Shown piece after piece: positions 2,765-63,181 of a DNA stretch of 64,000 nt. Numbering within the stretch: the stretch's first letter is position 1; each line of letters begins with the position of its first letter. The notes beneath the pieces were generated by a model. The model worked only from the letters and a program-made list of their open reading frames with translations. It was not told the origin of the DNA and did not search any database. Both the position numbers and the translations under genes were made by a program. The stretch lies in IMG/VR virus record IMGVR_UViG_3300045988_146577. One strand, 5' to 3'. Origin of the DNA: a virus. Its lineage: Duplodnaviria; Heunggongvirae; Uroviricota; Caudoviricetes.

Positions 2765-2780
2765 AAACAAATTGTTTTCT
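2765..2780 (-). promoter_or_regulatory. class-1 palindrome (AGAAAACAA-N-TTGTTT) in helicase leader
   Basis: AAACAAATTGTTTTCT about 20 nt upstream of helicase ATG. Confidence 0.5.
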
Positions 2781-2788
2781 AGTATTAG

Positions 2789-3529
2789 TTAATTAGATAG
2801 GGGATCAATAAACCGCCGTGCTTCTTCCAGTTCTTCTGGAAAGTGGGCGGAAATAAGGCGCTCTGGAACGATTTCCATTAGCCAGATAGCGGAGAAAATT
2901 GCGCGTATGCGCTTGCTGCGGGGGATGGTGCGTAAACGCTCCAGAATCCACTCAAAATAGCTTTCCTGAATCGGGTTGAACTGCATGTCTCCCATATGCT
3001 TAAAGCTAACGAGAGAGTCATCCAGACGGGTTGTTGCGCGTCTGGCTAATTTCTCTTCGAATATCTCAATCAGCTCTGGCTGCCACAAATGCTGTGGGCG
3101 CGGCAGCTTGTCCCACAGCCGTCGTGCAGCTGCGGAAAGAACGGTGGAGATAAAGTAGTCGTATGAGCAGCAATAGCGATCCGCAAACTGGCGTGCTTTC
3201 CATAGCGACGTTTTATTGGCAGTCGACAACTCCTGATAAGGCAGGCGTTTTAACCCGGTGGTGAACGGAGCTGTTTCAAAGTGTTCGCGACCGTGCGTCA
3301 GCATGATATTTGAGTACTGACGTTTGTATGCCTCCGTAAAAAGACAGGTGGCCATGAGAGGATGCATGTCGCGGTAATCAAACCACTTCGTCTCGAAGAG
3401 TTCAGCCTCGTCTTTACAGCGCGACAAACCAATGTTTTCAGCGACCCACTTGTCCATAACAGCGGTATTCCACTCTGTCATGAAGTCGTACTGGTCGTTG
3501 TCGATGGTATCGAAAAAGATTTGGCTCAT
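2789..3529 (-). CDS. hypothetical protein (replication-module neighbour)
   Basis: ORF track 2789..3538 (GTG); ATG at 3529 has AGGTGA RBS; no recognisable motif. Confidence 0.45.
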   Translation of the reverse strand: MSQIFFDTIDNDQYDFMTEWNTAVMDKWVAENIGLSRCKDEAELFETKWFDYRDMHPLMATCLFTEAYKRQYSNIMLTHGREHFETAPFTTGLKRLPYQELSTANKTSLWKARQFADRYCCSYDYFISTVLSAAARRLWDKLPRPQHLWQPELIEIFEEKLARRATTRLDDSLVSFKHMGDMQFNPIQESYFEWILERLRTIPRSKRIRAIFSAIWLMEIVPERLISAHFPEELEEARRFIDPLSN

Positions 3530-3540
3530 GTGGCTCACCT

Positions 3541-3562
3541 GGTAGGTAGTTACTTACTTATC
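3541..3562 (-). promoter_or_regulatory. class-2 palindrome
   Basis: GGTAGGTAGTTACTTACTTATC about 15 nt upstream of RBS of 2789 gene. Confidence 0.45.
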
Positions 3563-3645
3563 ACAATGAGCGGATGATAGCGACTGGTGGCAGTTTTTGG
3601 AAGTGGAAACGGAAGGGAGTTGTTCTGGTGGTGTCTTTTAAAAGA

Positions 3646-3700
3646 CCTGCTTCCGTATATATTTAATAAGTTACTTATTATTTATATATACAGAAGCAGG
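3646..3700. repeat. 55-bp AT-rich imperfect palindrome (copy 1)
   Basis: CCTGCTTCCGTATATATTTAATAAGTTACTTATTATTTATATATACAGAAGCAGG; near-identical copy at 35258-35312. Confidence 0.6.
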
Positions 3701-3805
3701 CTCCTAATGGATACCAAGAACAACATAATTTGACTCCAACCCCAGATGCTATGTCATTGACAGATTTATCAAGGGAGATCATGTTAGAATCAGTGTTTTA
3801 GCCTC

Positions 3806-4879
3806 GTGGATATTGTCACCATGCGCATGAATAGACTTCCAGGATATGGCCTTACCGAACTGGCTTTTTGGCCTCAGCCTAAATATGAACGGAATAAATG
3901 GTCGATGTTCTGTCTGAAACTCCGTAATGATGGAACCCTTGCTTGGTATCGGCGATATGTTGATCGTGGTATGCCAAACCACGCTTTTGATGACGACTAC
4001 GATAACTATCCTGAAGCAAGAAAAGCGGCATTAGAGCTGAATAAAAACGTGAGCTTTGACATTGAAAAACTTCCTCTATCTATGTTTCAAAAGAAGTCAT
4101 TGCGTTTGAAAGTTGACAAAGCACTCAAAGCCAAATCACGTCTCATGGATGAAGAGCATATAATGCTCAACGAAGCAATTAAGGCACACGCCAACGATCC
4201 GCGAGTGACATTAAATGAGTTAATAATTAACCCAGATTACGAAACTTTGCGTCAACCCCTTTTTGACGTGCTAAGCGAGATGCCTTACTTACATTTTGTT
4301 TTTCTTCCCAAATTCCAAGTTTCACTTCAACTCGTTGCTCCTAACACTTGGGAATGTTCATATAACAACAAAGCTAAGACAGCGAAGATCTGCTACCAAG
4401 AACGCATAGCCAGAGGTTTTGGTTTATCAGGCGCTGCACATTGGGGAAAAACAAAAGCGACTATTCGCTCAATGCTTCTGCCGCGTGCTAACCGGTTACT
4501 GCAACTCGCCAGCGTAAAAAGAATGCTGGATGAAGCTCTCAGGAATGGGCAAAAGGTACTGGTTGTTGGCAACTTTGTTTTCTGGTTTGAGGACAAAAAT
4601 CAGGTAGGTTGGAGTGTTAAAGTTGCTAGCGAAAGCGAAACCACCTCAAGAGGCAATACGCTCTGGAAAGAAGGAACTATCATTTCAAAAAATCACGGTC
4701 GAATTGTCGTGCTGCCGTATACAAAAGAAAACGGTAAACATGTAAAAGGTTATACCAAGAATGCCCCTAACGACGGCAACGCAATTCCGAGACATAAGGA
4801 TGAGTATGTCGAGTTGCCCTTTGAAATTTTGGATGGTGACTTGATGTTCAGTCTGTTCGGTGAGCTTAACTACGAATAG
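3806..4879 (+). CDS. hypothetical protein (357 aa)
   Basis: Long ORF divergent from replication genes; GTG start per ORF track; no recognisable domain. Confidence 0.45.
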   Translation: MDIVTMRMNRLPGYGLTELAFWPQPKYERNKWSMFCLKLRNDGTLAWYRRYVDRGMPNHAFDDDYDNYPEARKAALELNKNVSFDIEKLPLSMFQKKSLRLKVDKALKAKSRLMDEEHIMLNEAIKAHANDPRVTLNELIINPDYETLRQPLFDVLSEMPYLHFVFLPKFQVSLQLVAPNTWECSYNNKAKTAKICYQERIARGFGLSGAAHWGKTKATIRSMLLPRANRLLQLASVKRMLDEALRNGQKVLVVGNFVFWFEDKNQVGWSVKVASESETTSRGNTLWKEGTIISKNHGRIVVLPYTKENGKHVKGYTKNAPNDGNAIPRHKDEYVELPFEILDGDLMFSLFGELNYE

Positions 4880-4939
4880 CTTTCATAGAACGAAATATTT
4901 CTAAGGCTGTCCAATGCAGACCAGCCTTAGAGATTTATA

Positions 4940-5299
4940 TCAACCTTTCTTCATCAACTCTCGTTTGATTTCATCGGTACGCATCGTGACATCGGCAGCG
5001 GTGATCGCCTCATTCAATTTCACGATGTCCTCGATTTCCTGCGGTGACTTCTCTGCCAGATGGAAAATGGCTGCTCGAATCACGTCAGAACGAGTGAACT
5101 TCTCGAAGCGAGGGATGAACTTCATCATCTCCAGCAGTTCGAAGTATTCGTCCTCCAGTGACATTGTGCGGCTTTTAATTTTCTCTTTGCCACGAGTCGG
5201 GCGTCCCTGTGGTCTGACTGGTTGGCGCAAAGGAGTTGTGTTCTTAGCCGGTGCATCAGGCTCTTTGCGCTTTGCTAGGTCACCCATTTTCATGGACAT
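4940..5299 (-). CDS. small basic protein cotranscribed with ParA; candidate centromere-binding partner (ParG/ParB-like role)
   Basis: Start overlaps parA stop (5299); Lys/Arg/Pro-rich N-terminus then predicted helices; position-based inference. Confidence 0.4.
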   Translation of the reverse strand: MSMKMGDLAKRKEPDAPAKNTTPLRQPVRPQGRPTRGKEKIKSRTMSLEDEYFELLEMMKFIPRFEKFTRSDVIRAAIFHLAEKSPQEIEDIVKLNEAITAADVTMRTDEIKRELMKKG

Positions 5300-5967
5300 T
5301 ATTCTTCTTCCTCCAGACTCAACAGATAATCTACAAATTCTTCAAACTCGGCTTCCGCCTTTTTGTCGCGCTCGCTACCGGTCATTTCAAAGATAGAACG
5401 ACCAGACTCTTCCGCATCATCATAGACGTTGCGGTTATATAGATTGACTGGCGCAGACTCGATTCCAAACGTCTCAACAATCTCTTTAGCCGCCAGAATG
5501 CGAGACACTTGTGATGGCAAAGCCGGGCACTGGTTCATGACCGCGCGGACCTTCACTTTATCGTTTACATTGCGAACATTGTCGATAATAGGATCGATGT
5601 CACGTAAAGATTTCAAATCACGACGCTTAGGACGCAGCGGGATAATGATAACGTCAGCCATCAGCATCGCTTGTCGCTGAATTTCGGAGTCGAAGCCACC
5701 AGCATCTACCACTACAAACTCAGCTCTACCCTGAAGCGATTTTAGGTGCTTAATGATGTCATCCTGAACGTATGCAAAAGGAATCAGCTCAAGGTCTTCG
5801 TTCTGTCGACGGTCTTCACACCAGCTCGTTGTCGTGCGCTGAATATCTATATCGGTAATATAAACCTTCTTCTTCTTTTTGACTTTCATGCAAACGGCAA
5901 TTTGCTGGGCAACGGTGGATTTGCCAGGCCCGCCCTTTGTGCCGCCAACCACAAAGATCTTGGTCAT
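5299..5967 (-). CDS. parA: ParA-family partition ATPase (small, type Ib-like)
   Basis: Deviant Walker A VVGGTKGGPGKST, 222 aa; class-1 palindrome about 36 nt upstream of start. Confidence 0.8.
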   Translation of the reverse strand: MTKIFVVGGTKGGPGKSTVAQQIAVCMKVKKKKKVYITDIDIQRTTTSWCEDRRQNEDLELIPFAYVQDDIIKHLKSLQGRAEFVVVDAGGFDSEIQRQAMLMADVIIIPLRPKRRDLKSLRDIDPIIDNVRNVNDKVKVRAVMNQCPALPSQVSRILAAKEIVETFGIESAPVNLYNRNVYDDAEESGRSIFEMTGSERDKKAEAEFEEFVDYLLSLEEEE

Positions 5968-6002
5968 TGGAGAGTTCCCTTTGCGTATATAATTATCGTC
6001 TG

Positions 6003-6018
6003 AAACAACTTGTTTTCT
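6003..6018 (-). promoter_or_regulatory. class-1 palindrome in parA leader
   Basis: AAACAACTTGTTTTCT about 36 nt upstream of parA start. Confidence 0.5.
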
Positions 6019-6285
6019 TATATGTGATATAGCCTAAATGCCTACGGCTGCGGTGTAAAGGTTAAATGGTAGGTTGTGATTAACAATTGGCAATCATAGC
6101 TTGTATTTGTCTGTTGAAAAAAGTAACAATGACCTCTATATTACAAGTACGGTGATATGCCGTACACAATTTGATAATGCACACGTAATGGGCTATAGCC
6201 TTTTAAAGTAATTTTTGAGTCGAAAACTCAGTTTGAACAGAGGAGATTGATGGCCTTCCTACATCACGGCCATCAGGAGGAATAC

Positions 6286-6555: not shown

Positions 6556-6562
6556 TTTACTC

Positions 6563-7084: not shown

Positions 7085-7116
7085 TGTGTTCCCCTCATTT
7101 GAGGGGAACTTCGACA

Positions 7117-31650: not shown

Positions 31651-33225
31651 TCACTCGTTCTCTTGAGTAGATGAGTCCCCATTCCCTCGGGGTTGATCTT
31701 GCCCGCTTTCTTGGGCTGCGCCTTGATCATAAGTAAGTACTGACTTATTTTCAAGAGTATTTAGATCATTTTTTGGCGGAAAATTCAAGAGATCTTTATC
31801 AAATTCCTTCTTCATCGCCTCAGTGATGTTCGGGAAAATCTTCTCAATCAGCATTTCCATCTGGTGACGACGTACAGAGTCCGGTGCCTGAAGTAACGAC
31901 AGTTTCTCGGCAACAGAAAATTCATCAGTAAGGCCACGAATATCGAAACTTTCTGGATACGCAATTAATGAGTGGTCTTCGTCCAGATCTACCCCCATCC
32001 ATTTCGCAACCAGTAGCATGATTTGGCGTTCAGCCCTTTCCAGACGCTCTGCTTTTGTGACAAGCAAGCTATTTACACGCTGGAAGTCATACATTTTTGC
32101 GGCACCAGATGAGTTATCGATTCCCTGTGCGTTGTCCTGCTTCGTTCGCTCACCAGCTACACCAACTGAATGGTAGATTTCGTTAATCACCGTCTTAATC
32201 GTAGTGATGATCATCTGAGCTTGTTTCGGGTCTGGTGACAGATAAAACGGCTGGTTTCCACCTTCAGAATCGTAGGTGAAGACTCGCTTTGTGCCCATTT
32301 CAAGCACTTTAGTGTGGTTTTCATCACCAGGTAAAAGCGACTGTACCGGTATAGCCAACTGGCTAAATGTCTGATCCTGAATAATGGCATCAAGGTTTGA
32401 CAGATAGTTTGCAACCGCACGATCAAGATAAGCGATATCATCGATCAACGATGGGCTGAAATACGGTGATTCACTTTCTCCAATACAATCAACAGGAAAC
32501 ACAGGAACTACGCCGAGATTATGCTCACCGCTATCCTCTAAAATAACTTTTGCCTGACGGCGACCTGCTCCACCAGCGCCCTTCTTCACTTCCTCACGGA
32601 ACAGATACCACTCGTTTTGTGTCCACAGACGATAACGTTGGTATTCCTGACCTGTAGAAGTAAAAGGATCTGCGTCATCACGAGCGACTTCCACAATTAA
32701 CGCCCACAACATATTCCCGTCGTCGTCCCATGCCACATCCAGCATTTGCTGAGGTGAAATCCAGTAGGCGTAGGCGCGAGCATCTTTCTTTTTCTCGTCA
32801 GCTACTGACTCAACATCACCACTCATCGTGCTATCGACAACAACCCATATGCGACCGTAAATAGACGACTGCAAATCAATAGCGGCCATAAATGAGTCAA
32901 TAGAGGCATTCTGGCGAGTCGCACGTTTCCAGAAATTGCGGATCTGCTCTGGTGCCTCTTCGATATTTCTATGAATGTCTTCTTTAAAGAGATATTTGTT
33001 GATGAGGTTTACCACCTCACGAGTGTGGTTGAAGCGATAAGCACGCTCAACTCGCTCCTTAAACTCCTGATCTCCCTCTTTAAAGTAACGAAAGATATTG
33101 TCTGTAAACCAACCACGCCCGCCAGCGTAAGTGCTGGCGAGGAAGTCCCAATGTTCTTTTTTCTTTTCGTATTCCGGGTGGCGTCGCGCCACCAGATCCT
33201 TAATTTGTTTGTCGTTCAATTCCAT
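31651..33225 (-). CDS. portal protein
   Basis: 524 aa immediately downstream of large terminase; acidic C-terminus. Confidence 0.75.
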   Translation of the reverse strand: MELNDKQIKDLVARRHPEYEKKKEHWDFLASTYAGGRGWFTDNIFRYFKEGDQEFKERVERAYRFNHTREVVNLINKYLFKEDIHRNIEEAPEQIRNFWKRATRQNASIDSFMAAIDLQSSIYGRIWVVVDSTMSGDVESVADEKKKDARAYAYWISPQQMLDVAWDDDGNMLWALIVEVARDDADPFTSTGQEYQRYRLWTQNEWYLFREEVKKGAGGAGRRQAKVILEDSGEHNLGVVPVFPVDCIGESESPYFSPSLIDDIAYLDRAVANYLSNLDAIIQDQTFSQLAIPVQSLLPGDENHTKVLEMGTKRVFTYDSEGGNQPFYLSPDPKQAQMIITTIKTVINEIYHSVGVAGERTKQDNAQGIDNSSGAAKMYDFQRVNSLLVTKAERLERAERQIMLLVAKWMGVDLDEDHSLIAYPESFDIRGLTDEFSVAEKLSLLQAPDSVRRHQMEMLIEKIFPNITEAMKKEFDKDLLNFPPKNDLNTLENKSVLTYDQGAAQESGQDQPRGNGDSSTQENE

Positions 33226-35140: not shown

Positions 35141-35205
35141 AGATCCCTCTAAAACACACAGAGCGCGTCCATGCGCTCTAAAACAACTTGTTTACTGCAT
35201 CTTCT

Positions 35206-35221
35206 AACCAACTTGTTTTCT
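35206..35221 (-). promoter_or_regulatory. class-1 palindrome upstream of terminase small subunit
   Basis: AACCAACTTGTTTTCT; degenerate second copy at about 35181-35196. Confidence 0.45.
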
Positions 35222-35257: not shown

Positions 35258-35312
35258 CCTGCTTCCGTATATATTTAATAAGTTACTTATTATTTATATA
35301 TACAGATGCAGG
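35258..35312. repeat. 55-bp AT-rich imperfect palindrome (copy 2)
   Basis: Same sequence as 3646-3700 with one substitution; about 120 bp upstream of terminase small subunit. Confidence 0.6.
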
Positions 35313-35336: not shown

Positions 35337-35603
35337 TTACATCACCAGTAACTTCGCTTTGGCTCGACCTAAAGTGGTTAACCCAAGAGTTCGGCGGTGA
35401 TAGCGATTGTCACTGCGTTGGCGCGTATGCCCTTTCTCCACCAGCCCCTTTTTTATCAGAGCGCGAATTGAGAACTGGATACTTTGCTTGGTTGTCTTGT
35501 ACGGCAAAACTTCAAGCAATTCGTCCAGATCAAGTAGATGACCTCGCTCATAACCGAGATTGAGCGTTTTGATGATGTCCTTTTGTTTATCGGTTAACGT
35601 CAT
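35337..35603 (-). CDS. small winged-helix DNA-binding protein (candidate transcription regulator)
   Basis: 88 aa, basic, helix-turn-helix-like segment; first gene upstream of terminase operon. Confidence 0.45.
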   Translation of the reverse strand: MTLTDKQKDIIKTLNLGYERGHLLDLDELLEVLPYKTTKQSIQFSIRALIKKGLVEKGHTRQRSDNRYHRRTLGLTTLGRAKAKLLVM

Positions 35604-40154: not shown

Positions 40155-40433
40155 ATGAGCGAAAAGAAAACAACTTATTGCCAAGTGGCATTGTCTGATA
40201 AGGCCAATGAAAAACTTGGAAAATTCCAAATAAAACTCAAAGAGAAAAAAATCAAGATGTCTAAGGCTGAAGTTATCAATGCCATTCTGGAGACGATGAC
40301 TATGGCTGAATTTGACAAAGTCACATCTGCCGTTGGGGTTTCCGCTAAGACGCGTGAGAAAATCATGCGCATCTATGAAAACTCCAATATGACAAAAAAA
40401 GATCTAGAGGAAATACTGAGCAGGTTGCCGTAA
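40155..40433 (+). CDS. hypothetical protein (92 aa)
   Basis: ATG 2 nt after helicase stop. Confidence 0.4.
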   Translation: MSEKKTTYCQVALSDKANEKLGKFQIKLKEKKIKMSKAEVINAILETMTMAEFDKVTSAVGVSAKTREKIMRIYENSNMTKKDLEEILSRLP

Positions 40434-40498
40434 CATTTCATATTTACCCCCTATCTACTAATTCTATGATGTGCTCACTTGTTAGAAAGGAGCACATC

Positions 40499-41065
40499 AT
40501 GAGTTGGTTAAAAGAATTATCATTTGTTGACACCACTGGCGCTAAGAAAAATCATTCTTTCTGGAAAGTCAGCGATCCTTCTGATTTTCTTGTTGGTGCT
40601 AATGCTGCTTTTGAATTGCTTAACTTTTATCAACGTTATCCAGAAATGAAACACAGTCCACTCCTGTACAGAATAACAAACGATATGAATAGGTCTGGTT
40701 TATTATCAAGTGAGTCAGCGAAAGGCTTTTTTAGCAAAATTACGCCACACATATCATTCGATGCTGCAAACGAAATTGATTATCTATCCACGAAACCTCA
40801 AGAACAATTATCTGTACCACCTGAGAAAAAAGAAAGACGAATTGCCAGCATTGAAAATATATCGAAAGAGCTTCGCACAACAACGTTGAGGCTGCTGAAC
40901 TTTCTTACGCTGCTTAATTGGATAGATGATCAAACATTGATTCCATCAACAGATGCGTTGGATAACAGAGTCCTTAGGCTGAACAAAAAATCGCAATTTG
41001 GTTTTGTGTTCACCAAAAAAGGTGAAGATTTAATCAAAAGAAAATATAGATTATTGAATGATTAA
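40499..41065 (+). CDS. hypothetical protein
   Basis: AAGGAG RBS before ATG at 40499 (track 40466); RBS lies in an inverted repeat GATGTGCTC/GAGCACATC; terminator hairpin at about 41084-41110. Confidence 0.4.
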   Translation: MSWLKELSFVDTTGAKKNHSFWKVSDPSDFLVGANAAFELLNFYQRYPEMKHSPLLYRITNDMNRSGLLSSESAKGFFSKITPHISFDAANEIDYLSTKPQEQLSVPPEKKERRIASIENISKELRTTTLRLLNFLTLLNWIDDQTLIPSTDALDNRVLRLNKKSQFGFVFTKKGEDLIKRKYRLLND

Positions 41066-42352: not shown

Positions 42353-42874
42353 ATGGTTAAAGACATCACCTACGGCATACCGGCTGAAGTATGGCCGCGA
42401 GACTACGAACATGCTGAACGCACCTTGCTCTTCTGGCGGAGAGCTAAATTTCCTGTAAGAGTCACTCTCGAAGACGGCCAAGTGTTTTGCATGTACGTTT
42501 ATGGTCTCATGTCATCTCGTAACAAAGTTGACCTTTGTCCAACTCCATTTGACAAAGAAAATCGTATAAGGCTCCCACTTGAGCGCATTAGCACAATTGA
42601 ATCAGGCGTAATTGATGGCATTGATTACGATTTCAAAGGGAGACTAACAATACACCCTGACTATGTAGACAACCAGCCATCACGTCGTGACTTTTTTAAG
42701 ATATGTCGTCAGGCTTACCAAAACGGCAAATCTATAAGGGTCTACATGGCAGACGGTCGCGAAATTGAGGGAACGTCAGATGGCGTTGACGCCTGTCTAG
42801 TCACACTTAAGTTGGAAGACGGTAGAAAAATACTTATTTTCTTCGATTGGGTTGAACGAATCCTTCCGTTTTAG
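42353..42874 (+). CDS. hypothetical protein (173 aa)
   Basis: ORF with ATG start; no motif recognised. Confidence 0.4.
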   Translation: MVKDITYGIPAEVWPRDYEHAERTLLFWRRAKFPVRVTLEDGQVFCMYVYGLMSSRNKVDLCPTPFDKENRIRLPLERISTIESGVIDGIDYDFKGRLTIHPDYVDNQPSRRDFFKICRQAYQNGKSIRVYMADGREIEGTSDGVDACLVTLKLEDGRKILIFFDWVERILPF

Positions 42875-45011: not shown

Positions 45012-45494
45012 TTACACGCCATCAAGGATGTGGATGCGGTTGCTTGCGTATACATTCAGCATAAAGTTAGCGCAAAACAGTTTCCATGTATCAACGCCAG
45101 CGGTATACGTAATGTTTTTGCATTTAATCGCATTGTTGGCGATCCGCATCCCCTGCGATACTGCTTCATCGTCGGAAAATTTGAACGACGATTGAGTTTT
45201 AATCCAGACAGAAATCTGCGTAGCGAACTCAATCAGCTTGGACTGGCAGAATCGCCCGGAGCGCACCGGAAAGACGAACGTTCCGAATCCAGAATTTACC
45301 ACATACGCTTTCTCAAATACCCGCGAGTAACGACGATTGCCAATGATGTCGCGTGCAATAATGCATTTTTCTTGTGCTGACAGTTCTACCGTCTCATTGT
45401 CGCGCCATGCACCAAGTACTCGTTTTTCAATGTCAGAGAACGTTACAGCGATATTGCCATGTGCGGGTGCGTTTACAGTAGCGATAAAATTCAT
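45012..45494 (-). CDS. hypothetical protein (160 aa)
   Basis: AAGGAA RBS; class-1 palindrome in leader. Confidence 0.5.
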   Translation of the reverse strand: MNFIATVNAPAHGNIAVTFSDIEKRVLGAWRDNETVELSAQEKCIIARDIIGNRRYSRVFEKAYVVNSGFGTFVFPVRSGRFCQSKLIEFATQISVWIKTQSSFKFSDDEAVSQGMRIANNAIKCKNITYTAGVDTWKLFCANFMLNVYASNRIHILDGV

Positions 45495-45515: not shown

Positions 45516-45530
45516 AACAAATTGTTTTCT
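45516..45530 (-). promoter_or_regulatory. class-1 palindrome
   Basis: ACAAATTGTTTTCT followed by TGTTGGTGTTAATTATCG. Confidence 0.5.
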
Positions 45531-45580
45531 TGTTGGTGTTAATTATCGTTGTACGAATAAGGCGTCAAAGTGGAAAGTTG

Positions 45581-45669
45581 CGGTAGCCGGACGGGAACAG
45601 GTGGGTTTGTCGGTTGCCTGGAGGTAAGAGGTTGGTGTTTTTAGCCTGCGGGAAACAGGATGGTCATTT
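45581..45669. repeat. three tandem degenerate ~30-nt repeats (CGGTAGCCNGG...AGGTGGGTnTTT)
   Basis: Direct tandem units read on + strand; paralogous copy at 49207-49290. Confidence 0.5.
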
Positions 45670-45698
45670 AAGGCCACCAGCATTGGTGGCCTTACTCT

Positions 45699-45999: not shown

Positions 46000-46015
46000 A
46001 AACATATTGTTTTCT
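46000..46015 (-). promoter_or_regulatory. class-1 palindrome
   Basis: AAACATATTGTTTTCT followed by TGTTGGTGTAATTATCG. Confidence 0.5.
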
Positions 46016-46315
46016 TGTTGGTGTAATTATCGCAGTGTAGATAAGGCATAAAAGAAGTTAATACAGGCTGAATACACAAGAAAGGTTCTGGAAGTTGATA
46101 GCCAGGTTTCAAACTAACCTTCGGTTATTAAAAGTCATTTAAGACCACCAATGCTGGTGGCCTTAATAATTATCGCCCGATTACGCTAAGGATCTTTTCC
46201 TCAACTGATTTGTTGTTGCGACTAAACTGCCTTGCGTATCTGATGACAGAAGAGGCGTTTTGCTTTCTGACCATCTCGACTCTTTCCTTCAGGCGTTTCT
46301 TGAAATCGCCCATAT

Positions 46316-46746: not shown

Positions 46747-46762
46747 AGAAAACAAATTGTTA
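46747..46762 (+). promoter_or_regulatory. class-1 palindrome, inverted orientation, adjacent to terminator
   Basis: AGAAAACAAATTGTTA next to hairpin 46775-46799. Confidence 0.4.
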
Positions 46763-47652: not shown

Positions 47653-47668
47653 AAACAACTTGTTTTCT
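47653..47668 (-). promoter_or_regulatory. class-1 palindrome
   Basis: AAACAACTTGTTTTCT about 12 nt upstream of RBS. Confidence 0.5.
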
Positions 47669-47794: not shown

Positions 47795-48124
47795 TTACTC
47801 GAATACTTCAAGAAACTCCTGAACGTCCCAATGCTGGACGAGGTGAAGATAGACCTTAGAAATCACGTCATTTTCGCTATCGCATGTGAAGTAGTACTTC
47901 TGGCTGCGGTTGTATGTGTCCACACAAAATTCGCTCATATCCATAAAGTCAGCATCTTCACCCATGTCGCAAATCATCAAAGCAGGTGCGTCATCACGAG
48001 TCATCAGCTCAAGCACCCACCGCGAATTGATCAGAGTGGAAGACCAACCTTCCAGCTCATAGAACTGGTCAAACTCTTTTTGAGTCAATTTCTTGATTTG
48101 GTTGATGTCGATATGTGCAAACAT
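47795..48124 (-). CDS. hypothetical small highly acidic protein (109 aa)
   Basis: AAGGA RBS before ATG at 48124; track start 48145 lies inside class-1 palindrome. Confidence 0.45.
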   Translation of the reverse strand: MFAHIDINQIKKLTQKEFDQFYELEGWSSTLINSRWVLELMTRDDAPALMICDMGEDADFMDMSEFCVDTYNRSQKYYFTCDSENDVISKVYLHLVQHWDVQEFLEVFE

Positions 48125-48136
48125 AAAGCAATCCTT

Positions 48137-48152
48137 AAACAACATGTTTTCT
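48137..48152 (-). promoter_or_regulatory. class-1 palindrome
   Basis: AAACAACATGTTTTCT followed by TGTTGGTGTTATTATCG. Confidence 0.5.
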
Positions 48153-48649: not shown

Positions 48650-49600
48650 CGGGGGGGTAAAATCAGGAGTTGAATAAATACGAAAAAGGAGGCGACACCC
48701 CTCCTTCCCTCCCCACTTATACATACCTGTCTTGTTCGCTATACATGTTGTGTTTTCTTCGTGTTTTATCTGTCTCAACCTCTCTATAGGCGTTAATGCT
48801 CACTCCTTCCAGAACGTTCTATACGGCGACTATTTCTGTTGGTGAATTGGGTGTGTTGTTTTCTCTGTCGGTGTATGTAGTTTCATTAGTTTTGCGGTGG
48901 TTCTTCTATGGGGTGTTCTCGTCGTTTTGGTGATTGTTCTTCTCCGTGTATGGAGTAATGACAGGTGGGCGATTGCTTTCGTTATTGTGTTTGAGTTGTT
49001 TGTCTGGAGTGTGAAAGGCTTTTGTAGTTATTCGTGTATTGGGTAATGGCGTTTCCCGTGATTGTTATGTTTCGTGTCTTTTGGGATTGAGAGAAACCTT
49101 GCGGTTACAGGCTTCGTTGGGGTTTCAGTGATTCTGATGTTTCTTCGCTGTTTGGGTAATGGCGTGTCGTGAGTATCGCGCGTATGGAAGTTTCGAATTG
49201 CCTGTGAAAGTTAGGTTGGTTGTCCGGTAGCCTGGGAAGAAGAGGTGGGTCTTTTCGGTAGCCTGCCATAAAGAGGTTGGTTGTTTTGGGAATGGCATAT
49301 GTGTTATTTAGTTGTTTTGTTATGCCTGAAAATAAGTTGTTTATATGGTTATGTAACGCAACGGGAACGATTTTGAGCGTGTGTTTTTGTTGGTAGTGTG
49401 TTGGGTCGTCTGTGGTGAAAATTGGACGCTGTGGCGCTGTCTGCTGCGTAGAATTACGGGTATAAGCTGTGATGTGTGGAAACGTCAATTTTTTAGACCA
49501 AATCGGGTGAAAGCGTTGATGTTTCGTTGATCTGTTATTCAGTTGTTTTCTTGATTGTATAAACAACTATAACTTATTGATATTTAAGGATGTGATTGCG
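48650..49600. other. ORF-free, strongly G+T-skewed (on + strand) region with internal degenerate repeats; candidate non-coding RNA or origin-like region
   Basis: No plausible ORF on + strand; only minus-strand ORF is low-complexity; repeats TTGGGTAATGGCGT at about 49035 and 49151. Confidence 0.4.
49207..49290. repeat. tandem degenerate ~30-nt repeats, paralog of 45581-45669
   Basis: CCGGTAGCCTGGGAAGAAGAGGTGGGTCTTTT then CGGTAGCCTGCCATAAAGAGGTTGGTTGTTTT. Confidence 0.5.
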
Positions 49601-49676
49601 GGTATGGAAGGGGAGTAGTGGCGATCAACGGATTCTTATAGAAAAGAATCAAATTGTGACCGCCATTATCAATGTT

Positions 49677-50456: not shown

Positions 50457-50756
50457 TTACCAGTTCCAGCACTCAAGCCCTTCAACGACCGGTGCACCAC
50501 AATCAAAATGTACAGAGTCAAAGCCTACATCAAGTACTTTCTGAATGTTAGCAATCGCGCCTTCGGATATACCATATCGACGCAAGTCGTCTTTCCAGAC
50601 ATCATCCTGTAACCCGGCGTGGACAATACAACCGCCATCAATTTGTGAAACCCAATCCAGCTCATTGCTTGCGATCATGAATCGGCGAGCATCTTCCTCT
50701 GATGTATGAGATGAGCTGATCAATGCCACCTGGTAGGCTTGGGTAATGTTCAACAT
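50457..50756 (-). CDS. hypothetical small acidic protein (99 aa)
   Basis: GGAG RBS 9 nt before ATG at 50756; class-1 palindrome immediately upstream. Confidence 0.45.
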   Translation of the reverse strand: MLNITQAYQVALISSSHTSEEDARRFMIASNELDWVSQIDGGCIVHAGLQDDVWKDDLRRYGISEGAIANIQKVLDVGFDSVHFDCGAPVVEGLECWNW

Positions 50757-50769
50757 TTCAACCACTCCA

Positions 50770-50785
50770 AAACAAGTTGTTTTCT
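50770..50785 (-). promoter_or_regulatory. class-1 palindrome
   Basis: AAACAAGTTGTTTTCT immediately upstream of RBS of 50457 gene. Confidence 0.5.
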
Positions 50786-50817: not shown

Positions 50818-50834
50818 AGAAAACAAATTGTTTT
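50818..50834 (+). promoter_or_regulatory. class-1 palindrome, inverted orientation, about 40 nt from metG terminator
   Basis: AGAAAACAAATTGTTTT. Confidence 0.4.
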
Positions 50835-54246: not shown

Positions 54247-54636
54247 CTACATCACAGGACAATCATCAAACTCGCCACTTCTTGCGTCGTTGATAATGTG
54301 AGTGATCACACCAAACACGGCATTGCTGCCCGTGCATCCATCGTCATCCTTTGGCAATGCTTCCTTCTTACCGGTTCTTAAATCCTCCAGATGCTGACGT
54401 GGGTACTTCCGGTATCTTTTTACGCGATATTCCCCATCCAGAGCGCATACAAGCAGAGAACCATCAACCGGGGTAAGTGAGGAATCGACCACCAGCAATG
54501 CACCCTGTAATATTCCCTCACGATGATGGCTGTCAGCCGCTCTCATGAAGTAGGTCGCTGAAGGATGTCTAATTATCTGCTGATCAAGAGAAATACGGCT
54601 CTCAGCATAATCCGCCGCAGGAGAAGGGAAGCCCAT
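54247..54636 (-). CDS. UmuD'-like S24 peptidase-domain protein (HumD-like, lacks N-terminal cleavable arm)
   Basis: Starts MGFPSPAADY, matching UmuD just after its autocleavage site; Ser (DSHH) and Lys (RVKRYRK) catalytic dyad positions conserved; LexA box upstream. Confidence 0.8.
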   Translation of the reverse strand: MGFPSPAADYAESRISLDQQIIRHPSATYFMRAADSHHREGILQGALLVVDSSLTPVDGSLLVCALDGEYRVKRYRKYPRQHLEDLRTGKKEALPKDDDGCTGSNAVFGVITHIINDARSGEFDDCPVM

Positions 54637-54652: not shown

Positions 54653-54672
54653 TACTGTTCATTTATACAGTA
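54653..54672 (-). promoter_or_regulatory. LexA (SOS) box
   Basis: TACTGTTCATTTATACAGTA = CTGT-N8-ACAG consensus, about 17 nt upstream of HumD-like start. Confidence 0.75.
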
Positions 54673-54755
54673 TACATGAAAGAAGCTCACTCAGTGCAAC
54701 TGATCGGTACATAGCACCAGACAAAGGAACGTTATTTTCTCGAACAAGAAAAGGT

Positions 54756-54771
54756 AGAAAACAAATTGTTT
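54756..54771 (+). promoter_or_regulatory. class-1 palindrome fused to terminator hairpin (54772-54792)
   Basis: AGAAAACAAATTGTTT + AAGGCCAC-aacta-GTGGCCTT. Confidence 0.45.
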
Positions 54772-54808
54772 AAGGCCACAACTAGTGGCCTTAATGGAGA
54801 AGGGATGC

Positions 54809-56201: not shown

Positions 56202-57274
56202 TCGTCATCCTCATCCGAGTCATCCTCATCACAGGATGAGAGTAGTGGGTTAGTCATTCGCCCTACTTGAGTGGCGTAGCCACGCCGACAGAGATTGCGC
56301 AGCACACTGTATATTTCGAACATCTCGGTTCGTTCATCGCCAACATCAAGCTCAGATGCTATAGCGTGGCATTCAGTCGCGAGAGCCGATATTTTCTGAA
56401 ATAACTCTGCATTATTCACTGTTCGACTCCTGCGGCGTTCTGGTAGTGACATCCAGTGTGTGACATTGCTAATCAGACCATATTCATTAGTTTGAGGATG
56501 GTTGCCGTTAGCGTCTCCGTATTTAAGACTCTCCATAAAGCCATAATGCCTATCACCATTAACGCTCACAAAGCCGTAATAAGCAGGTATAACGCCGATC
56601 TCACACGTAACCAGTAAAGGAAAACTAGTTCTCCAATTTAGCTCGCCAATTACAGGCATTCGCTCACTACAGCTTATCCAGCTATCCTTAATGCCACTAT
56701 CTTGACTCTGAAGCATGGCGGCGCGGCAGGCGTTCCATGCTCTCCAGTTGCGTGACTCAATCCCAGCTGGATAAGGGTCAGAGCTTCCTACGATGCACTT
56801 TTCATCCTCAACCATCCACCGTTCAAAATCCGCTCGGAACTTATCGTTGTCAACCACCGCTGGCTGCGGTAACTTTGGTTCCATCAGTGACTCCAGTTCA
56901 GCAATGCGCTTCTCTGCGGCTTCCAGCTCAACGCGCAGCTTCCCAACCGTTAGCGCAATATCCTCGTTCTCCTGGTCACGGCGTTTGATGTATTGCTGGT
57001 TCCTTTCCCGTTCATCCAGTAATACCAGCACAGTAGCCGGGTTGGCTGCGGCGATGAATTCAGCATTGGCCTGCTGCTCCATTTGGAAATCTTCATCGAA
57101 ACCGCTTTCAGGATGCGCTCCTTCAATTCTGCAAATGGGAATATATCCAGCAGCCTCGCGATGAATTAGTGCATCATCACCATCAAATCTGCCATCTCCA
57201 TATTCTAGCGACCACTCGCCACACGTTGCTTTCTCTGCCTTTTCACGCAGTGCCTGATAGTCAATCTTGCTCAC
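56198..57274 (-). CDS. Ea22-like early prophage protein
   Basis: N-terminus MSKIDYQALREKAEKATCGEWSLEYGDGRFD and DUF551-like C-terminus typical of lambdoid Ead/Ea22-family proteins; acidic tail. Confidence 0.55.
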   Translation of the reverse strand: MSKIDYQALREKAEKATCGEWSLEYGDGRFDGDDALIHREAAGYIPICRIEGAHPESGFDEDFQMEQQANAEFIAAANPATVLVLLDERERNQQYIKRRDQENEDIALTVGKLRVELEAAEKRIAELESLMEPKLPQPAVVDNDKFRADFERWMVEDEKCIVGSSDPYPAGIESRNWRAWNACRAAMLQSQDSGIKDSWISCSERMPVIGELNWRTSFPLLVTCEIGVIPAYYGFVSVNGDRHYGFMESLKYGDANGNHPQTNEYGLISNVTHWMSLPERRRSRTVNNAELFQKISALATECHAIASELDVGDERTEMFEIYSVLRNLCRRGYATQVGRMTNPLLSSCDEDDSDEDDE

Positions 57275-57822
57275 TGGTTGCCTCCTTTGCGAAGCTGTTC
57301 AGCAATACTTACGCATATCTCTGCGCCTCTAATCAGCCCCGGAACGTTCTTGTTTGGCCCAACTTCACCATCAACAAAATCAATCATCGCGTTACGAGCC
57401 ATATCCACGCCCTGCGCACGTACTTCAGCCAGAAAAGCATCGGTGGCTGGAGTTTCTATGCACTGCATTTCATGCAATGTCTGCATGTCCATAAAATCCC
57501 CGTCAGGCTCTGTGATAGTGGCGTTATATGCCGAGTAAATTTTTGACGCTTCATGTGCCAGTTCCGCAGCCTTAGATCGCAATGCCACATTCTCCGCCGC
57601 TAATGCGTCTCTCTGCGCCCGCAACTTCTCAATTTCGGCAGCCATGTAGTAACCAACCATAGCGAAGACGGCAAAAGAGTTGTCTGCCTCATCAGGCGAC
57701 ACTGAGGCCATTAGCAGGCCATCGTAAAAATCGTGACTCCCATTGGTGATCGCCACCGCATAGGAGTCGTGGTTCTCGCGCTTGTGAATGAGAACTACGG
57801 GATTTTCGATTTTGTTACTCAT
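57271..57822 (-). CDS. hypothetical early-region protein
   Basis: 183 aa, coiled-coil middle; translationally coupled to Ea22-like gene. Confidence 0.45.
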   Translation of the reverse strand: MSNKIENPVVLIHKRENHDSYAVAITNGSHDFYDGLLMASVSPDEADNSFAVFAMVGYYMAAEIEKLRAQRDALAAENVALRSKAAELAHEASKIYSAYNATITEPDGDFMDMQTLHEMQCIETPATDAFLAEVRAQGVDMARNAMIDFVDGEVGPNKNVPGLIRGAEICVSIAEQLRKGGNQ

Positions 57823-57893: not shown

Positions 57894-57909
57894 AGAAAAC
57901 AATTTATTT
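57894..57909 (+). promoter_or_regulatory. degenerate class-1 palindrome fused to hairpin (duplicate of 54756 module)
   Basis: AGAAAACAATTTATTT + AAGGCCACAACTTATGGCCTT. Confidence 0.35.
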
Positions 57910-57960
57910 AAGGCCACAACTTATGGCCTTTATTTATTCATGCCGAAGGATTTGTAGCGT

Positions 57961-59045: not shown

Positions 59046-59086
59046 GTGTTTTTCTCTTATCGTTTAGTAACTACATTCTTACACAA

Positions 59087-59109
59087 ATTAGGTAAGTATT
59101 TACCTATCA
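59087..59109 (-). promoter_or_regulatory. class-2 palindrome
   Basis: TTAGGTAAGTATTTACCTATCAT between MTase stop and next gene start. Confidence 0.45.
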
Positions 59110-60792: not shown

Positions 60793-60832
60793 AATTGCAC
60801 CATTAAGAAGTGATTTGTTTAATGGTGCAATT
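60793..60832. promoter_or_regulatory. perfect 13-bp inverted repeat abutting the methyltransferase start codon
   Basis: AATTGCACCATTAA -N12- TTAATGGTGCAATT directly 5-prime of the ATG. Confidence 0.5.
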
Positions 60833-60895
60833 ATTTCAAAAATGAAAAGGTACTAAATAGAAATAAACAGGCAATCCTTCAAATAAAGGCATTGG

Positions 60896-61510
60896 CTAAT
60901 CATACTTGGAGGTATTTATCACCAGAATTTTGTTTGTATAAATCTTCTTAATATCCCATGTGACATTACCGGAATACCATTGACCGTTATATACTTGGTT
61001 TCCAGTTGCACCTGTCATTGTTACATAGACAGGTCTGTCGTAATCGGTTCGTCTATAGTTATATACCCCAACCATAGCAGGCATTACCGCACATGGATAC
61101 CCCATATCTATTGTAAATTGAGGGTCAGAAATAGTGATAAGTTTCGCATCAAGGGGCATCATCTCACCGTGATACACCATTGCGCCTGCGCTGTTATACA
61201 TGGCAATGCCATAGCCAGAATGTGGTAACACCATATCAGAAAAAGCATAAACTGTTATTGTTCCGGGGCTACCATTTACCTGATGCAATCTGAGAGCATT
61301 GTATCCGTTACTATGCTCATGAATAAACATCATGTTCGCCTTATTACTGCTTTTTATGAAAAAAAAACATGATTTGTTTGATGGGATTGATGTTTGAAAA
61401 ACAGAACCTTTAGATGTAGACATTGTCCCTTTATTAATCAGATTTTGCGGAGTAAATTCTGGACTCATCCACAAACTTCCATCTGATTGAGTAATTGACA
61501 TCCCGAACAT
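60896..61510 (-). CDS. hypothetical Asn/Tyr/Gly-rich protein (AT-rich moron)
   Basis: GGGGA RBS; ATG 2 nt after upstream gene stop; track ORF 60896..61567 overlaps upstream gene. Confidence 0.4.
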   Translation of the reverse strand: MFGMSITQSDGSLWMSPEFTPQNLINKGTMSTSKGSVFQTSIPSNKSCFFFIKSSNKANMMFIHEHSNGYNALRLHQVNGSPGTITVYAFSDMVLPHSGYGIAMYNSAGAMVYHGEMMPLDAKLITISDPQFTIDMGYPCAVMPAMVGVYNYRRTDYDRPVYVTMTGATGNQVYNGQWYSGNVTWDIKKIYTNKILVINTSKYD

Positions 61511-61512
61511 AA

Positions 61513-61794
61513 TTATCCCCAGTATGTGTATATGTAAGAACCAAGCCCCGTATATAAATTTGACCAACTAACCGTATTTCCATTAATAGTAACATTTGGA
61601 ACAGGTAAATTGATGTAGTTGTCGTTGTTAAGAGGCATTAATGACCACACGGCATGTAGTGATTTACCCGGTGGCGGATTAGAGTACGTCTTAGAGCCTG
61701 ATGACGCCGTAAATCGATCAAGAAAAAAAATAGGTGTAAGGAAGCCAGTAACGTTAATTCCTTTATTGTTGTAAATCCCTGTACCGTATGCCAT
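61513..61794 (-). CDS. hypothetical Asn/Tyr/Gly-rich protein (AT-rich moron)
   Basis: 93 aa ORF, low GC, terminator hairpin upstream. Confidence 0.4.
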   Translation of the reverse strand: MAYGTGIYNNKGINVTGFLTPIFFLDRFTASSGSKTYSNPPPGKSLHAVWSLMPLNNDNYINLPVPNVTINGNTVSWSNLYTGLGSYIYTYWG

Positions 61795-61848
61795 TTTTCA
61801 CCCTTGTTTTTATCAACACAATATGGCCGATCATGCGGCCATATCAGA

Positions 61849-62418
61849 TCAATTAGAGCTTTGAAAGACTTTGTGTGGTTGTGTTGCGAGGTTATGTCGA
61901 TGGCTTAACTCACGCATCATGTCTTCAAGGCGACTCTTTGTGTCGTCGAGTTGGTCGGCCATTGCTCCCAAAAGCTGACGAACGGCCATCGGATCATCGC
62001 TGTTTAGTGATGGCATTTTATAACCCGCCTGAGAAGACATAAGATTGAACGCAGACATCAACATCGTTAGAGAGGATTTAAGCCCAGCAATTTCACGATC
62101 TTTGCTGGCAATAATCGCCTCACTCTTGTTAGTGTCATCAGTTCGTTGAGTCTCGCTCACCATATCCAAAGTCGCCTGCAACTTATCAGCGCGCTCTTTT
62201 TCAGCAAGATAATGAACACCGAAATGATGTGCTAAAGCTACAACCTGAGTTGGCTCTTCAAAGGTGGACTCAAAATTAAGTGCTGTAACCACTCTCTCAA
62301 ATATGGAAACGTCTTCTATTCCTCGAAGAATGGCTAACATTTTGACCAGCTCATTAGCATCCATTTCTTCGAATAAGGCGTTTTGTTCATCAGCTATCGC
62401 TTTGCATTTCTTGCACAT
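61849..62418 (-). CDS. hypothetical protein (189 aa)
   Basis: AGGAAAAACAC-ATG leader; class-1 palindrome upstream. Confidence 0.45.
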   Translation of the reverse strand: MCKKCKAIADEQNALFEEMDANELVKMLAILRGIEDVSIFERVVTALNFESTFEEPTQVVALAHHFGVHYLAEKERADKLQATLDMVSETQRTDDTNKSEAIIASKDREIAGLKSSLTMLMSAFNLMSSQAGYKMPSLNSDDPMAVRQLLGAMADQLDDTKSRLEDMMRELSHRHNLATQPHKVFQSSN

Positions 62419-62436
62419 GTGTTTTTCCTAATGCTT

Positions 62437-62452
62437 AAACAAGTTGTTTTCT
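62437..62452 (-). promoter_or_regulatory. class-1 palindrome
   Basis: AAACAAGTTGTTTTCT about 18 nt upstream of ATG. Confidence 0.5.
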
Positions 62453-62557
62453 TATTGGCTTTATTGTGATGTGGCATAAAAGGGGAGCAAGCTAAACGTA
62501 AAGGTGCAAACTCTCTATTTCGGTCAACGAAACACAAGGGCCATTTGGCCCTTGTCA

Positions 62558-62714
62558 TTAACACGTTGCTTTACGGACTAGCGGATAAGCGAAGTAGATC
62601 GCCAGGCCAATGAGGACGCCATCAGAAATGACAGACATCATCTTTCCCGTAAAATCCACCAACACCGCCATCACCAGAAGAGCAATGACGGCCACAAGCC
62701 GGAATCTCTCAAGC
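62558..62714 (-). CDS. small hydrophobic peptide (about 52 aa, two predicted TM helices), translationally coupled to TerB-like gene
   Basis: ATG overlaps TerB-like stop (TAATG); below ORF-track size cutoff; followed by terminator hairpin near 62536-62555. Confidence 0.3.
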
Positions 62715-62715
62715 A

Positions 62716-63141
62716 TTAGAGATAAGCATCCAGTGACAACTGAAGCGCCTGGGCGATCTTTTTCAGTGCCTGCTCTTCTTGTTCACCAATGCCATCCTGA
62801 TCGGCAATATCAAGGCACAGACACAGAACATCGACCGCCTCTGGAGTACCCGCAATATCAGACAGCTCACGAATAGCCTGTGCATTAGCAGAACGAGGGG
62901 ACGCTTCGTAACGAGCACGGATATTGGCGCTCATTTGGGCAATTTCACCAGCAAACGGAGAAAACGCAGGCAGAGCTGCAATTGTCTTCTCAAGAATGGC
63001 AATTTCTTTTGCGTCACATGTGCCGTCGGCATAGGAGATCATGTACGCGCCCCACACGGTGGCCTCAACCGCATCACGGTTCTCCATTTTTTTGACTTCA
63101 ATAACAGCTTTACGAGTTTTCTTTTTGAAGAAACCTAACAT
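62716..63141 (-). CDS. TerB-like (tellurite-resistance TerB fold) protein
   Basis: Two ADG....E...L..iA.L repeats (ISYADGTCDAKEIAILEKTIAAL; IADQDGIGEQEEQALKKIAQAL). Confidence 0.6.
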   Translation of the reverse strand: MLGFFKKKTRKAVIEVKKMENRDAVEATVWGAYMISYADGTCDAKEIAILEKTIAALPAFSPFAGEIAQMSANIRARYEASPRSANAQAIRELSDIAGTPEAVDVLCLCLDIADQDGIGEQEEQALKKIAQALQLSLDAYL

Positions 63142-63165
63142 GTGTTTTCCTTTTATTATTTGTCA

Positions 63166-63181
63166 AAACAAGTTGTTTTCT
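63166..63181 (-). promoter_or_regulatory. class-1 palindrome in TerB-like leader
   Basis: AAACAAGTTGTTTTCT about 25 nt upstream of ATG. Confidence 0.5.

Follow-up and report, generated by a model that had tools for sequence, protein, structure and literature searches.

A promoter-anchored palindrome as a putative operator of SSU5-like phage-plasmids

In the plasmid prophage of P1 the C1 operators are dispersed over the element as asymmetric 17-bp sites and are read by a monomeric protein of 283 residues. KorB of the IncP plasmid RK2, a helix-turn-helix (HTH) CTPase of the ParB family, recognizes a 13-bp palindrome of the form 6-N-6 at about a dozen sites near promoters, and the four centromere palindromes of N15, which lie near regulatory regions, are read by its ParB protein SopB. 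On the level of RNA, RegA of phage T4 is one protein acting on many early mRNAs, and FljA represses the fliC mRNA, its target being located in the leader near the Shine-Dalgarno sequence (SD). The PeSL cassettes of T4-type phages consist of a hairpin and an early promoter placed before many small open reading frames (ORFs) in a plastic region. Here we report on the in silico analysis of a palindrome that recurs before genes in a viral DNA stretch of 64,000 nucleotides (IMG/VR record IMGVR_UViG_3300045988_146577, Caudoviricetes). This whole stretch is called the window in the following, and it represents a phage-plasmid of the SSU5-like group.

We interpret this palindromic motif, a 13-bp dyad, as an operator on the DNA level by which one class of sigma-70-type promoters is marked out in SSU5-like phage-plasmids, presumably the site of a dimeric repressor, and give this reading slightly better than even chances. 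The binding of a protein, the sign of regulation, the transcription starts and the identity of the reader are what we infer. Like the C1 operators of P1, one operator sequence would occupy many promoters, including those of a replicative-helicase operon and of late-control genes, and would silence separate operons in the plasmid state; unlike in P1, the site is a 13-bp dyad, and no C1 homologue was identified. With KorB/IncC and KorA of RK2 and omega of pSM19035 the element shares a repeated palindrome at promoters of replication, partition and accessory genes. In the KorB and omega systems the reader is a partition protein that autoregulates, and here the operon of parA and a ribbon-helix-helix (RHH)-like gene bears the motif in its promoter; the candidate differs from KorB in being a small, RHH-like, putative partner of a type Ib ParA. 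If this partner autoregulates, the logic would be the same as for ParG, omega and KorB, and if it is the reader, partition would be coupled to gene silencing as in IncP plasmids. As in N15, palindromes are scattered over a phage-plasmid, although here there are about 17 sites and all are anchored to promoters. The resemblance to PeSL cassettes lies in a repeated hairpin and an early-type promoter within a shared block of approximately 60 nucleotides (45.5-51 kb and 54.7-57.9 kb), whereas the strict dyad is also found here on core-gene promoters with unrelated flanks. A homologue of FljA (PF03614) is encoded in the window, which recalls FljA and RegA; dyad symmetry, promoter anchoring, conserved copies outside the mRNA and only a weak likeness to fliC leaders set the motif apart from these. 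Neither by sequence nor by an identified protein is the dyad a member of the P1, IncP or T4-cassette families. In the full-text literature, the coverage of which is incomplete, we found no description of the motif or of any operator in SSU5-like elements, and the control of lysis-lysogeny and maintenance in this group is essentially uncharacterised.

According to megablast the window is 98-99% identical to plasmid pLF82 of Escherichia coli LF82, that is phage Cyrano (OV696614.1), and to many E. coli and Shigella plasmids of 105-112 kb; its identity to Salmonella phage SSU5 is about 80%. Relative to the Cyrano record the window is reverse-complemented, and therefore nearly all of its genes lie on the minus strand. 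The SSU5-like group contains pHCM2 of Salmonella Typhi, pLF82 of adherent-invasive E. coli, part of the backbone of Yersinia pestis pMT1, and hundreds of plasmids from Klebsiella, Enterobacter and E. coli. Such phage-plasmids are frequent among clinical isolates and bear resistance genes (PMC9600943).

Allowing for one mismatch at most, AACAANTTGTTTTCT occurs 16 times in the window compared to 0.09 expected matches, and none of 100 shuffled sequences reaches this count. An earlier note on this DNA had described the motif as a palindrome of 16-19 bp, and its 19-mer AGAAAACAANTTGTTTTCT yields 13 matches with up to three mismatches (0.08 expected). While the dyad is real, the full 19 bp are rarely complete. 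The sequence logo delimits the conserved unit to the 13-bp dyad AAACAA-N-TTGTTT and an AG(A) extension on one side only, so that the element reads AGAAAACAA-N-TTGTTT in gene sense. All copies listed in the earlier note were recovered, with shifts of 1-3 nucleotides, and the intergenic enrichment that it had proposed to check is pronounced: with the coding and non-coding parts taken from the Cyrano annotation, 15 of the 16 copies are intergenic, within a non-coding share of about 8.5% of the window. Eleven copies have AGAAAACAA first in gene sense (the minus strand of the window) and stand immediately before genes, and will be called leader copies; four others (46747, 50818, 54756 and 57894) are inverted.

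The leader copies are preceded by a block, CGATAATTAACACCAACA, which we predict to be a -10 box of the GATAAT type, sometimes with a TGn extension, at a distance of 10-11 nucleotides from the motif. A "TTGG-N-TTAATTATCG block" formerly said to follow the motif is the reverse complement of this block, and is located upstream in gene sense. An example is the hexamer GATAAT at 45542-45547 (minus strand), likewise predicted from the sequence, 11 nucleotides upstream of the copy at 45516. Among the 37 leader copies of Cyrano, SSU5 and pJN2-26 the best -10-like hexamer lies 10-12 nucleotides from the motif in 27 cases, and over the 30 copies with a decent -10 the gap has a mean of 9.7 and a standard deviation of 1.9. 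The same spacing fits the promoters of parA, helicase, terS and CYRAN_87, which are not homologous to each other. The distance between the motif end and the start codon ranges from 9 to 85 nucleotides (standard deviation 16.6), with 36 for parA and 41-66 for terS. Each inverted copy ends 16 nucleotides upstream of a GATAAT or GAAAAT box and covers the -35 position. Since these copies lie upstream of the -10 and just past the hairpin of the upstream gene, they are mostly outside the downstream mRNA. That they sit beside terminator hairpins, as had been noted earlier, applies to three of them, which directly adjoin the hairpin, while the copy at 50818 follows about 40 nucleotides on. Judged by these predicted boxes, the placement of the dyad is anchored to the promoter and not to the ribosome site.

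Three core operons illustrate this arrangement. The copy AGAAAACAATTTGTT at 2766-2780 (minus strand) stands 20 nucleotides before the ATG of the DnaB-like helicase gene (1405-2745) of the helicase-primase operon, and has orthologues at 32077 in Cyrano, 34382 in SSU5, 75764 in pJN2-26 and 100855 in pCRKP18622-1. In the parA promoter the hexamers TTTACA-17-TAGGCT are followed after 12 nucleotides by the most deeply conserved copy of all (6004-6018, minus strand), which precedes the parA ATG at the distance given above. The promoter and leader of terS contain two copies in tandem with 25 bp between them, the first at 35207-35221 (minus strand) with a TAATTA -10-like box upstream, the second, AGTAAACAAGTTGTT, at 35182-35196 (minus strand). 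A GC-rich hairpin, AGAGCGC..GCGCTCT, and a T-run, GTGTGTTTT, come next (approximately 35141-35175, minus strand), located between the terS promoter and the SD and ATG of terS. This hairpin may act as an attenuator or terminator, and the packaging and structural genes would then be controlled by antitermination.

The dyad is well conserved among relatives of the window. With up to one mismatch it occurs 17 times in Cyrano (16 intergenic), 18 times in SSU5, 15 times in Klebsiella pJN2-26 and 18 times in the Klebsiella plasmid pCRKP18622-1, which is more distant (TerL 90% and helicase 68% identical), and it is also present in metagenomic and Nissabacter-type relatives. It is unchanged across the relatives from E. 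coli, Salmonella, Klebsiella and Enterobacter, and there it marks orthologous promoters (terS, parA, helicase, nrdB, cobT and the TerB-like gene) in addition to lineage-specific accessory cassettes. The composite GATAAT-N10-AGAAAACAANTTGTT was found in 95 stretches of IMG/VR contigs, most of them 45-115 kb long. When orthologous intergenic regions are aligned, the motif stands out together with its promoter as a conserved island; for the parA promoter six lineages were aligned, and ATAAGAAAACA..T.TTT is the one block without any variation among them. The dyad is present at this promoter in each of the five Enterobacteriaceae-type lineages examined, while Moellerella has the left arm only, together with separated half-sites. 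The Morganellaceae lineage, comprising six IMG/VR loci and the plasmid pW18-2-b of Moellerella, shares the virion and replication genes (TerL about 80% identical). The palindrome is absent from this plasmid and these six loci, but ATAAGAAAACAA has stayed in place as the beginning of their promoters, that of parA included. In our reading of these sequences the left arm may be the older, promoter-intrinsic part, to which a right arm was added in the Enterobacteriaceae lineages, making the dyad; this would explain why the AG(A) extension is always found on the promoter-proximal arm.

For the distinction between a DNA site and an RNA structure we pooled the variants from every locus fetched, resulting in 500 sites with 104 distinct 16-mers. 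Across these variants the positions of both arms are conserved to 90-100%, and the four bases share the central position evenly (27/25/25/27). There are no compensatory pairs among the 62 deviating pair cells, all deviations being one-sided. The RNAs of 10 leaders fold no better than shuffled sequences (z from -1.7 to +1.2, mostly near 0); the motif hairpin is present in some minimum free energy folds only, and a leader of 29 nucleotides containing the motif amounts to -0.7 kcal/mol. Consistent pairing between the motif and the SD was not found in the folds of these 10 leaders, and a comparison of the whole window with Rfam gave no match at the gathering score of any family. The mRNA of the leader copies carries AGAAAACAANUUGUUU, as in the example leader RNA AACAAGAAAACAAUUUGUUAUUUACGAUAAGG, and the arm UUGUUUUCU lies on the non-transcribed strand. 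Complementary arms that are conserved in sequence, a free centre, a fixed promoter spacing and conserved copies outside the transcript all point to a dimeric protein reading double-stranded DNA. The first of two interpretations offered in the earlier note, a shared operator for one dimeric regulator, fits the symmetry, the -10 spacing, the conservation and the expression in the lysogen described below.

In the operator network we propose, a dimeric protein encoded by the element would bind to the dyad. At leader copies it would be positioned at approximately +4 to +19 of the predicted transcript, 10-12 bp downstream of the GATAAT-like -10, and at inverted copies it would cover the -35 position, ending 16 bp upstream of the -10; some promoters have both kinds of copy. 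The bound protein could then block either RNA polymerase binding or promoter escape. By this means the helicase-primase operon, the terS (late) operon, nrdB and about ten accessory cassettes would be held silent in the plasmid-prophage state, and the parA operon with its near-consensus core promoter would be damped only. The extra AG(A) might reflect that the promoter-proximal arm doubles as promoter or initial transcribed region; ATAAGAAAACAA alone persists at the same place in the distant lineage lacking the palindrome. If we had to name a reader, it would be the RHH-like ParA partner, which would then autoregulate its own operon. Taken with a second palindrome family, which is found on most other operons, an operator on about 15 promoters would provide a regulatory wiring map of the element. 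Such a map would also separate promoter classes, and offer a handle to cure or induce these plasmids.

Expression in the lysogen was taken from the published RNA-seq of LF82 (supplementary file 2, s008.xlsx, of PMC9928086), whose prophage Cyrano is about 98% identical to the window. Compared to a prophage median of 9.8, the first genes behind motif promoters are at background: terS 7.1, CYRAN_58 5.7, CYRAN_85 7.0, CYRAN_87 7.1, CYRAN_93 6.3, CYRAN_101 7.5, CYRAN_105 12.8, CYRAN_106 12.2, CYRAN_108 5.7 and CYRAN_110 6.7. The helicase gene (21) and CYRAN_111 (25.5) are slightly above background, and the parA operon is clearly on (parA 50, the RHH-like gene 89, CYRAN_30 55). The silence of the motif promoters fits a repressor that is present in the lysogen and merely damps the strong parA promoter. 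The two ParB_N proteins of the element are at background level. By far the most abundant transcript of the element in this table is that of CYRAN_43 (outside the window, Cyrano 40268-40822), a "hypothetical protein" approximately 700-fold above the prophage background, which may be a non-coding RNA and not an mRNA.

Three proteins of the window come into consideration as readers. The first is the RHH-like ParA partner of 119 residues (4940-5299, minus strand), the gene of which overlaps the parA stop and is translationally coupled. The parA gene itself (5299-5967, minus strand) encodes a type Ib-like ParA ATPase, and is the first gene of the operon whose promoter contains the copy at 6004. The partner has a tail that is basic and disordered, and a core of RHH-like sequence (KSRTMSLEDEYFELL...TRSDVIRAAIFHLAE, with the pattern KSRTMSLEDE..TRSDVIRAAI), and is 92-98% identical in SSU5 and pJN2-26. 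Its putative strand, KSRT(M/V)S, and putative second helix, TRSDVIRAAI, do not vary in homologues of 48-64% overall identity, and these homologues keep the dyad at the parA promoter. The protein is expressed in the lysogen. A repeat array of the centromere type was not found around parA, where there is a single dyad only. The second candidate, a protein of 88 residues (35337-35603, minus strand), is encoded directly upstream of the terS promoter and shows a weak similarity to winged-helix proteins (Sta1/Lrs14); it is barely expressed in the lysogen, and its operon is headed by the second palindrome family. The third, which would act at the level of RNA, is the FljA-like protein (42353-42874, plus strand), which matches PF03614 over its full length (E 3.5e-80). 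Its model (pLDDT, the predicted local distance difference test, of 82) has two Hfq-like Sm domains, with a helix and five strands occurring twice, and no HTH, in agreement with the action of FljA on the fliC mRNA (PMC2652032).

Covariation between reader and motif was not observed: the motif is constant while the FljA-like protein has identities of 56-59%, 37% and 26%, and the RHH-like protein of 48-64%. The Morganellaceae are the sole contrast for such a comparison, and all candidates diverge together there. Two further proteins were considered. A CYRAN_45-type HTH repressor, encoded next to the Cyrano integrase outside the window, is unlikely to be the reader, for the divergent promoter region that controls it contains a palindrome of the GGTAAGTGCTTACC type and not the motif, and SSU5 keeps the motif without having the gene. 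The HumD/UmuD-like S24 protein (54247-54636) was rejected as a LexA-like regulator, being a HumD equivalog without a DNA-binding domain.

Several points weigh against a repressor operator read by the ParA partner. A generic sigma-70 scan misses the motif promoters because their -35 elements are weak, and their -10 assignments are sequence-based predictions. Many of the cassette promoters are paralogous, and the regularity of the spacing is hence in part a matter of shared ancestry. The AG(A) arm always faces the core promoter, and a symmetric dimer does not require such a strict orientation. The silence in the lysogen is equally compatible with an activator that is missing there. With regard to the reader, all three proteins are candidates. 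The RHH assignment is composed of a sub-threshold match to the aCcr1 (RHH) family (E 2e-4), the sequence pattern and a low-confidence model; this AlphaFold2 model has a pLDDT of 63, helices at residues 48-60 and 70-84, and no strand in the monomer, and a profile built from the alignment of the RHH-like proteins has no significant match among PDB sequences.

Among the alternatives, an operator on the level of RNA deserves attention, although we consider it unlikely. Here the FljA-like protein would bind the motif in the 5' leaders, repress translation and destabilise about 15 transcripts. Besides the full-length family match, the argument for it comes from its gene belonging, in conserved synteny, to the core of SSU5-like elements, those of Klebsiella without flagella included, from its expression in the lysogen (log2 of 7-8 in four of five conditions), and from the sense orientation of the leader copies, which holds for 37 out of 37. 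Because Klebsiella lacks flagella, the target of the protein there cannot be the flagellin mRNA. The palindrome-less Morganellaceae have a homologue that is 23% identical and N-terminally shorter, or none was detected. The Salmonella fliC leader also contains CAAGUUGU near its SD. When the fliC leaders of E. coli and Salmonella/Citrobacter were scored with the motif matrix, however, the Salmonella leader reached -1.6 compared to at least 14.5 for real sites (p approximately 0.04-0.07), and the E. coli leader was not significant (p 0.17-0.22). Complementary arms without compensatory changes and without a stable hairpin are awkward for a protein binding single-stranded RNA, the motif is anchored to the -10 and not to the SD or ATG, its distances from the start codon do not place it for occluding the ribosome-binding site, and the inverted copies outside the downstream mRNA are equally conserved. 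The protein is moreover 26-98% identical among lineages in which the motif is invariant. If this protein, modelled as tandem Sm domains with no DNA-binding domain predicted, were the reader, it might silence the replication, packaging and accessory genes globally after transcription, at the 5' ends of about 15 mRNAs. A temperate phage-plasmid would then have a regulon in the style of RegA or CsrA, derived from or ancestral to the flagellar phase-variation repressor, a reading that we think quite unlikely. In such a setting the inverted copies, being followed by terminator hairpins, could even be small decoy RNAs. If true, this would be a much more unusual finding than a DNA operator.

Positive control is a second unlikely alternative. 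The dyad would then be bound by an activator, or by a factor for promoter specificity, that is made only after induction; the 88-residue protein is an example. Such a factor would switch on a temporal class of promoters with weak -35 elements. Such a view would be suited to promoters that have no recognisable -35 and are missed by a consensus scan, and to the observation that they are silent in the lysogen while parA, with a good -35, is active. The upstream-type copy is roughly at the position of a class II activator, and the second dispersed palindrome family, which marks other operons, suggests promoter classes. Most copies, though, are downstream of the predicted start site, which is unusual for activators, and there is no demonstrated candidate: the 88-residue gene is also found in the palindrome-less lineage, with about 60% identity.

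A reading without any dedicated reader appears quite improbable to us. In this case the motif would be part of a PeSL-like cassette of promoter and hairpin that was spread and homogenised by recombination, with the A-rich arm acting as start-site or translation-enhancer sequence and the palindromy incidental. The cassettes at 45-51 kb and 54-58 kb indeed share about 60 nucleotides of promoter and the hairpin TAAGGCCAC..GTGGCCTTA, ATAAGAAAACAA occurs without a right arm in the Morganellaceae, and the accessory genes between the cassettes vary among relatives, not being the same in Cyrano, SSU5 and pJN2-26. Against this stands the right arm, which is conserved as strongly as the left one, the presence of the dyad on non-cassette promoters with unrelated flanks (parA, helicase, terS, nrdB and cobT), and its invariance across lineages with diverged flanks. 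The second interpretation of the earlier note, a 5' UTR (untranslated region) hairpin whose UUGUUUUCU arm could pair with the ribosome-binding site as a switch, is not supported, and we reject it in view of the arm being on the wrong strand, the shuffle-level folds, the missing covariation and Rfam match, and the widely variable start-codon distance. A function of half-sites was also rejected, as AGAAAACA without the right arm is found just seven times in the window, and scattered; a sigma-28 promoter reading of GCGATAA fails at the -35, which does not fit.

The remaining copies belong largely to accessory genes. In the promoter of an accessory cassette the leader copy at 45516-45530 (minus strand) precedes a 160-residue ORF (45012-45494). 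The copy AGAAAACAATATGTT at 46001-46015 (minus strand), which has the extended -10 TGcGATAAT, and the copy AGAAAACATGTTGTT at 48138-48152 (minus strand; 47795-48145 region) are also located before accessory genes, and a further copy at 47654-47668 (minus strand) lies 9-12 nucleotides before the ATG of a small accessory gene. Beside metG, the leader copy at 50771-50785 (minus strand) stands before the ORF 50457-50765 in a promoter with both types of copy, the inverted one at 50818-50832 (plus strand) ending 16 nucleotides before GATAAT and overlapping the -35 position. This pair, 47 bp from centre to centre, recurs at 93115/93162 in Cyrano and 88320/88367 in SSU5. Two more leader copies, both on the minus strand, are found at 62438-62452 before the ORF 61849-62418 and at 63167-63181 before the TerB/TciA-like gene (62716-63141).

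The other inverted copies, all on the plus strand, are at 46747-46761, immediately past a terminator-like hairpin and 16 nucleotides before a GAAAAT -10; at 54756-54770, abutting the hairpin TTAAGGCCAC..GTGGCCTTAA upstream of the HumD/UmuD-like gene; and at 57894-57908, abutting a hairpin upstream of the ORF 57271-57822. The last one is kept together with its promoter as a block in SSU5 and pJN2-26. The only coding copy (40165-40179, plus strand) has one mismatch, is located inside the start of a 92-residue gene (40155-40433) and is not conserved in SSU5; it is probably due to chance or lineage-specific. A degenerate copy, TGAAAATAAGTTGTT, at 49327-49341 (plus strand) falls into a C/A-rich stretch with little coding potential (48.7-49.65 kb), and better copies are found in its place in SSU5 and in metagenomic relatives.

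This stretch of about 0.9 kb (approximately 48700-49650, strongly C/A-rich in minus-strand sense) has no convincing genes, a 153-residue ORF with a TTG start being the only one. It contains several imperfect direct repeats and, besides the degenerate copy, three left-arm half-sites, and is kept free of genes in SSU5, pCRKP18622-1 and metagenomic relatives. It could represent a non-coding RNA or an origin-like region. The terminator-like hairpins of the form TAAGGCCAC-N4-7-GTGGCCTTA at 45669-45694, 46139-46166, 54770-54794 and 57910-57930 are common to several accessory cassettes, which suggests that the cassettes are paralogous modules.

The second palindrome family mentioned above is AT-rich and has the form GATA(A/G)GTAAGT-N-(A)CTTAYCTATC, with members at 107, 3546, 8602, 12811, 19731, 26242, 31728/31733, 33240, 38532 and 59087/59092. 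Its sequence GATARGTAAGTNNNTAC has 12 matches in the window compared to 0.4 expected, and the related GATAAGTAAGT occurs 18 times in the whole of Cyrano with up to one mismatch. The family precedes many operons without the dyad, among them those of the holin, the portal/terL junction, the tail genes, the ParB-like operon, SSB, nrdA and thyX. A related core, GGTAAGTGCTTACC, is found in the control region of the Cyrano HTH repressor, and the family may be the operator of this repressor, or it may mark a second class of promoters. Another palindrome, large and AT-rich, CCTGCTTCCGTATATATTTAATAAGT / ACTTATTATTTATATATACAGAAGCAGG, is located at 3646-3700 and at approximately 35260-35300; all relatives examined have one of its arms, AAGTAACTTATTAAATATATACGGAAGCAGG, a short way upstream of the terS promoter, and it could serve as a signal for packaging or for replication.

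Directly upstream of the HumD/UmuD-like gene we found the LexA box TACTGTATAAATGAACAGTA at approximately 54655-54680 (minus strand), and the corresponding box of Cyrano, CTGTATGTGTATACAG, is different and equally canonical. By its sequence this gene is predicted to be SOS-controlled, and the element has been reported to be inducible by ciprofloxacin (PMC9928086).

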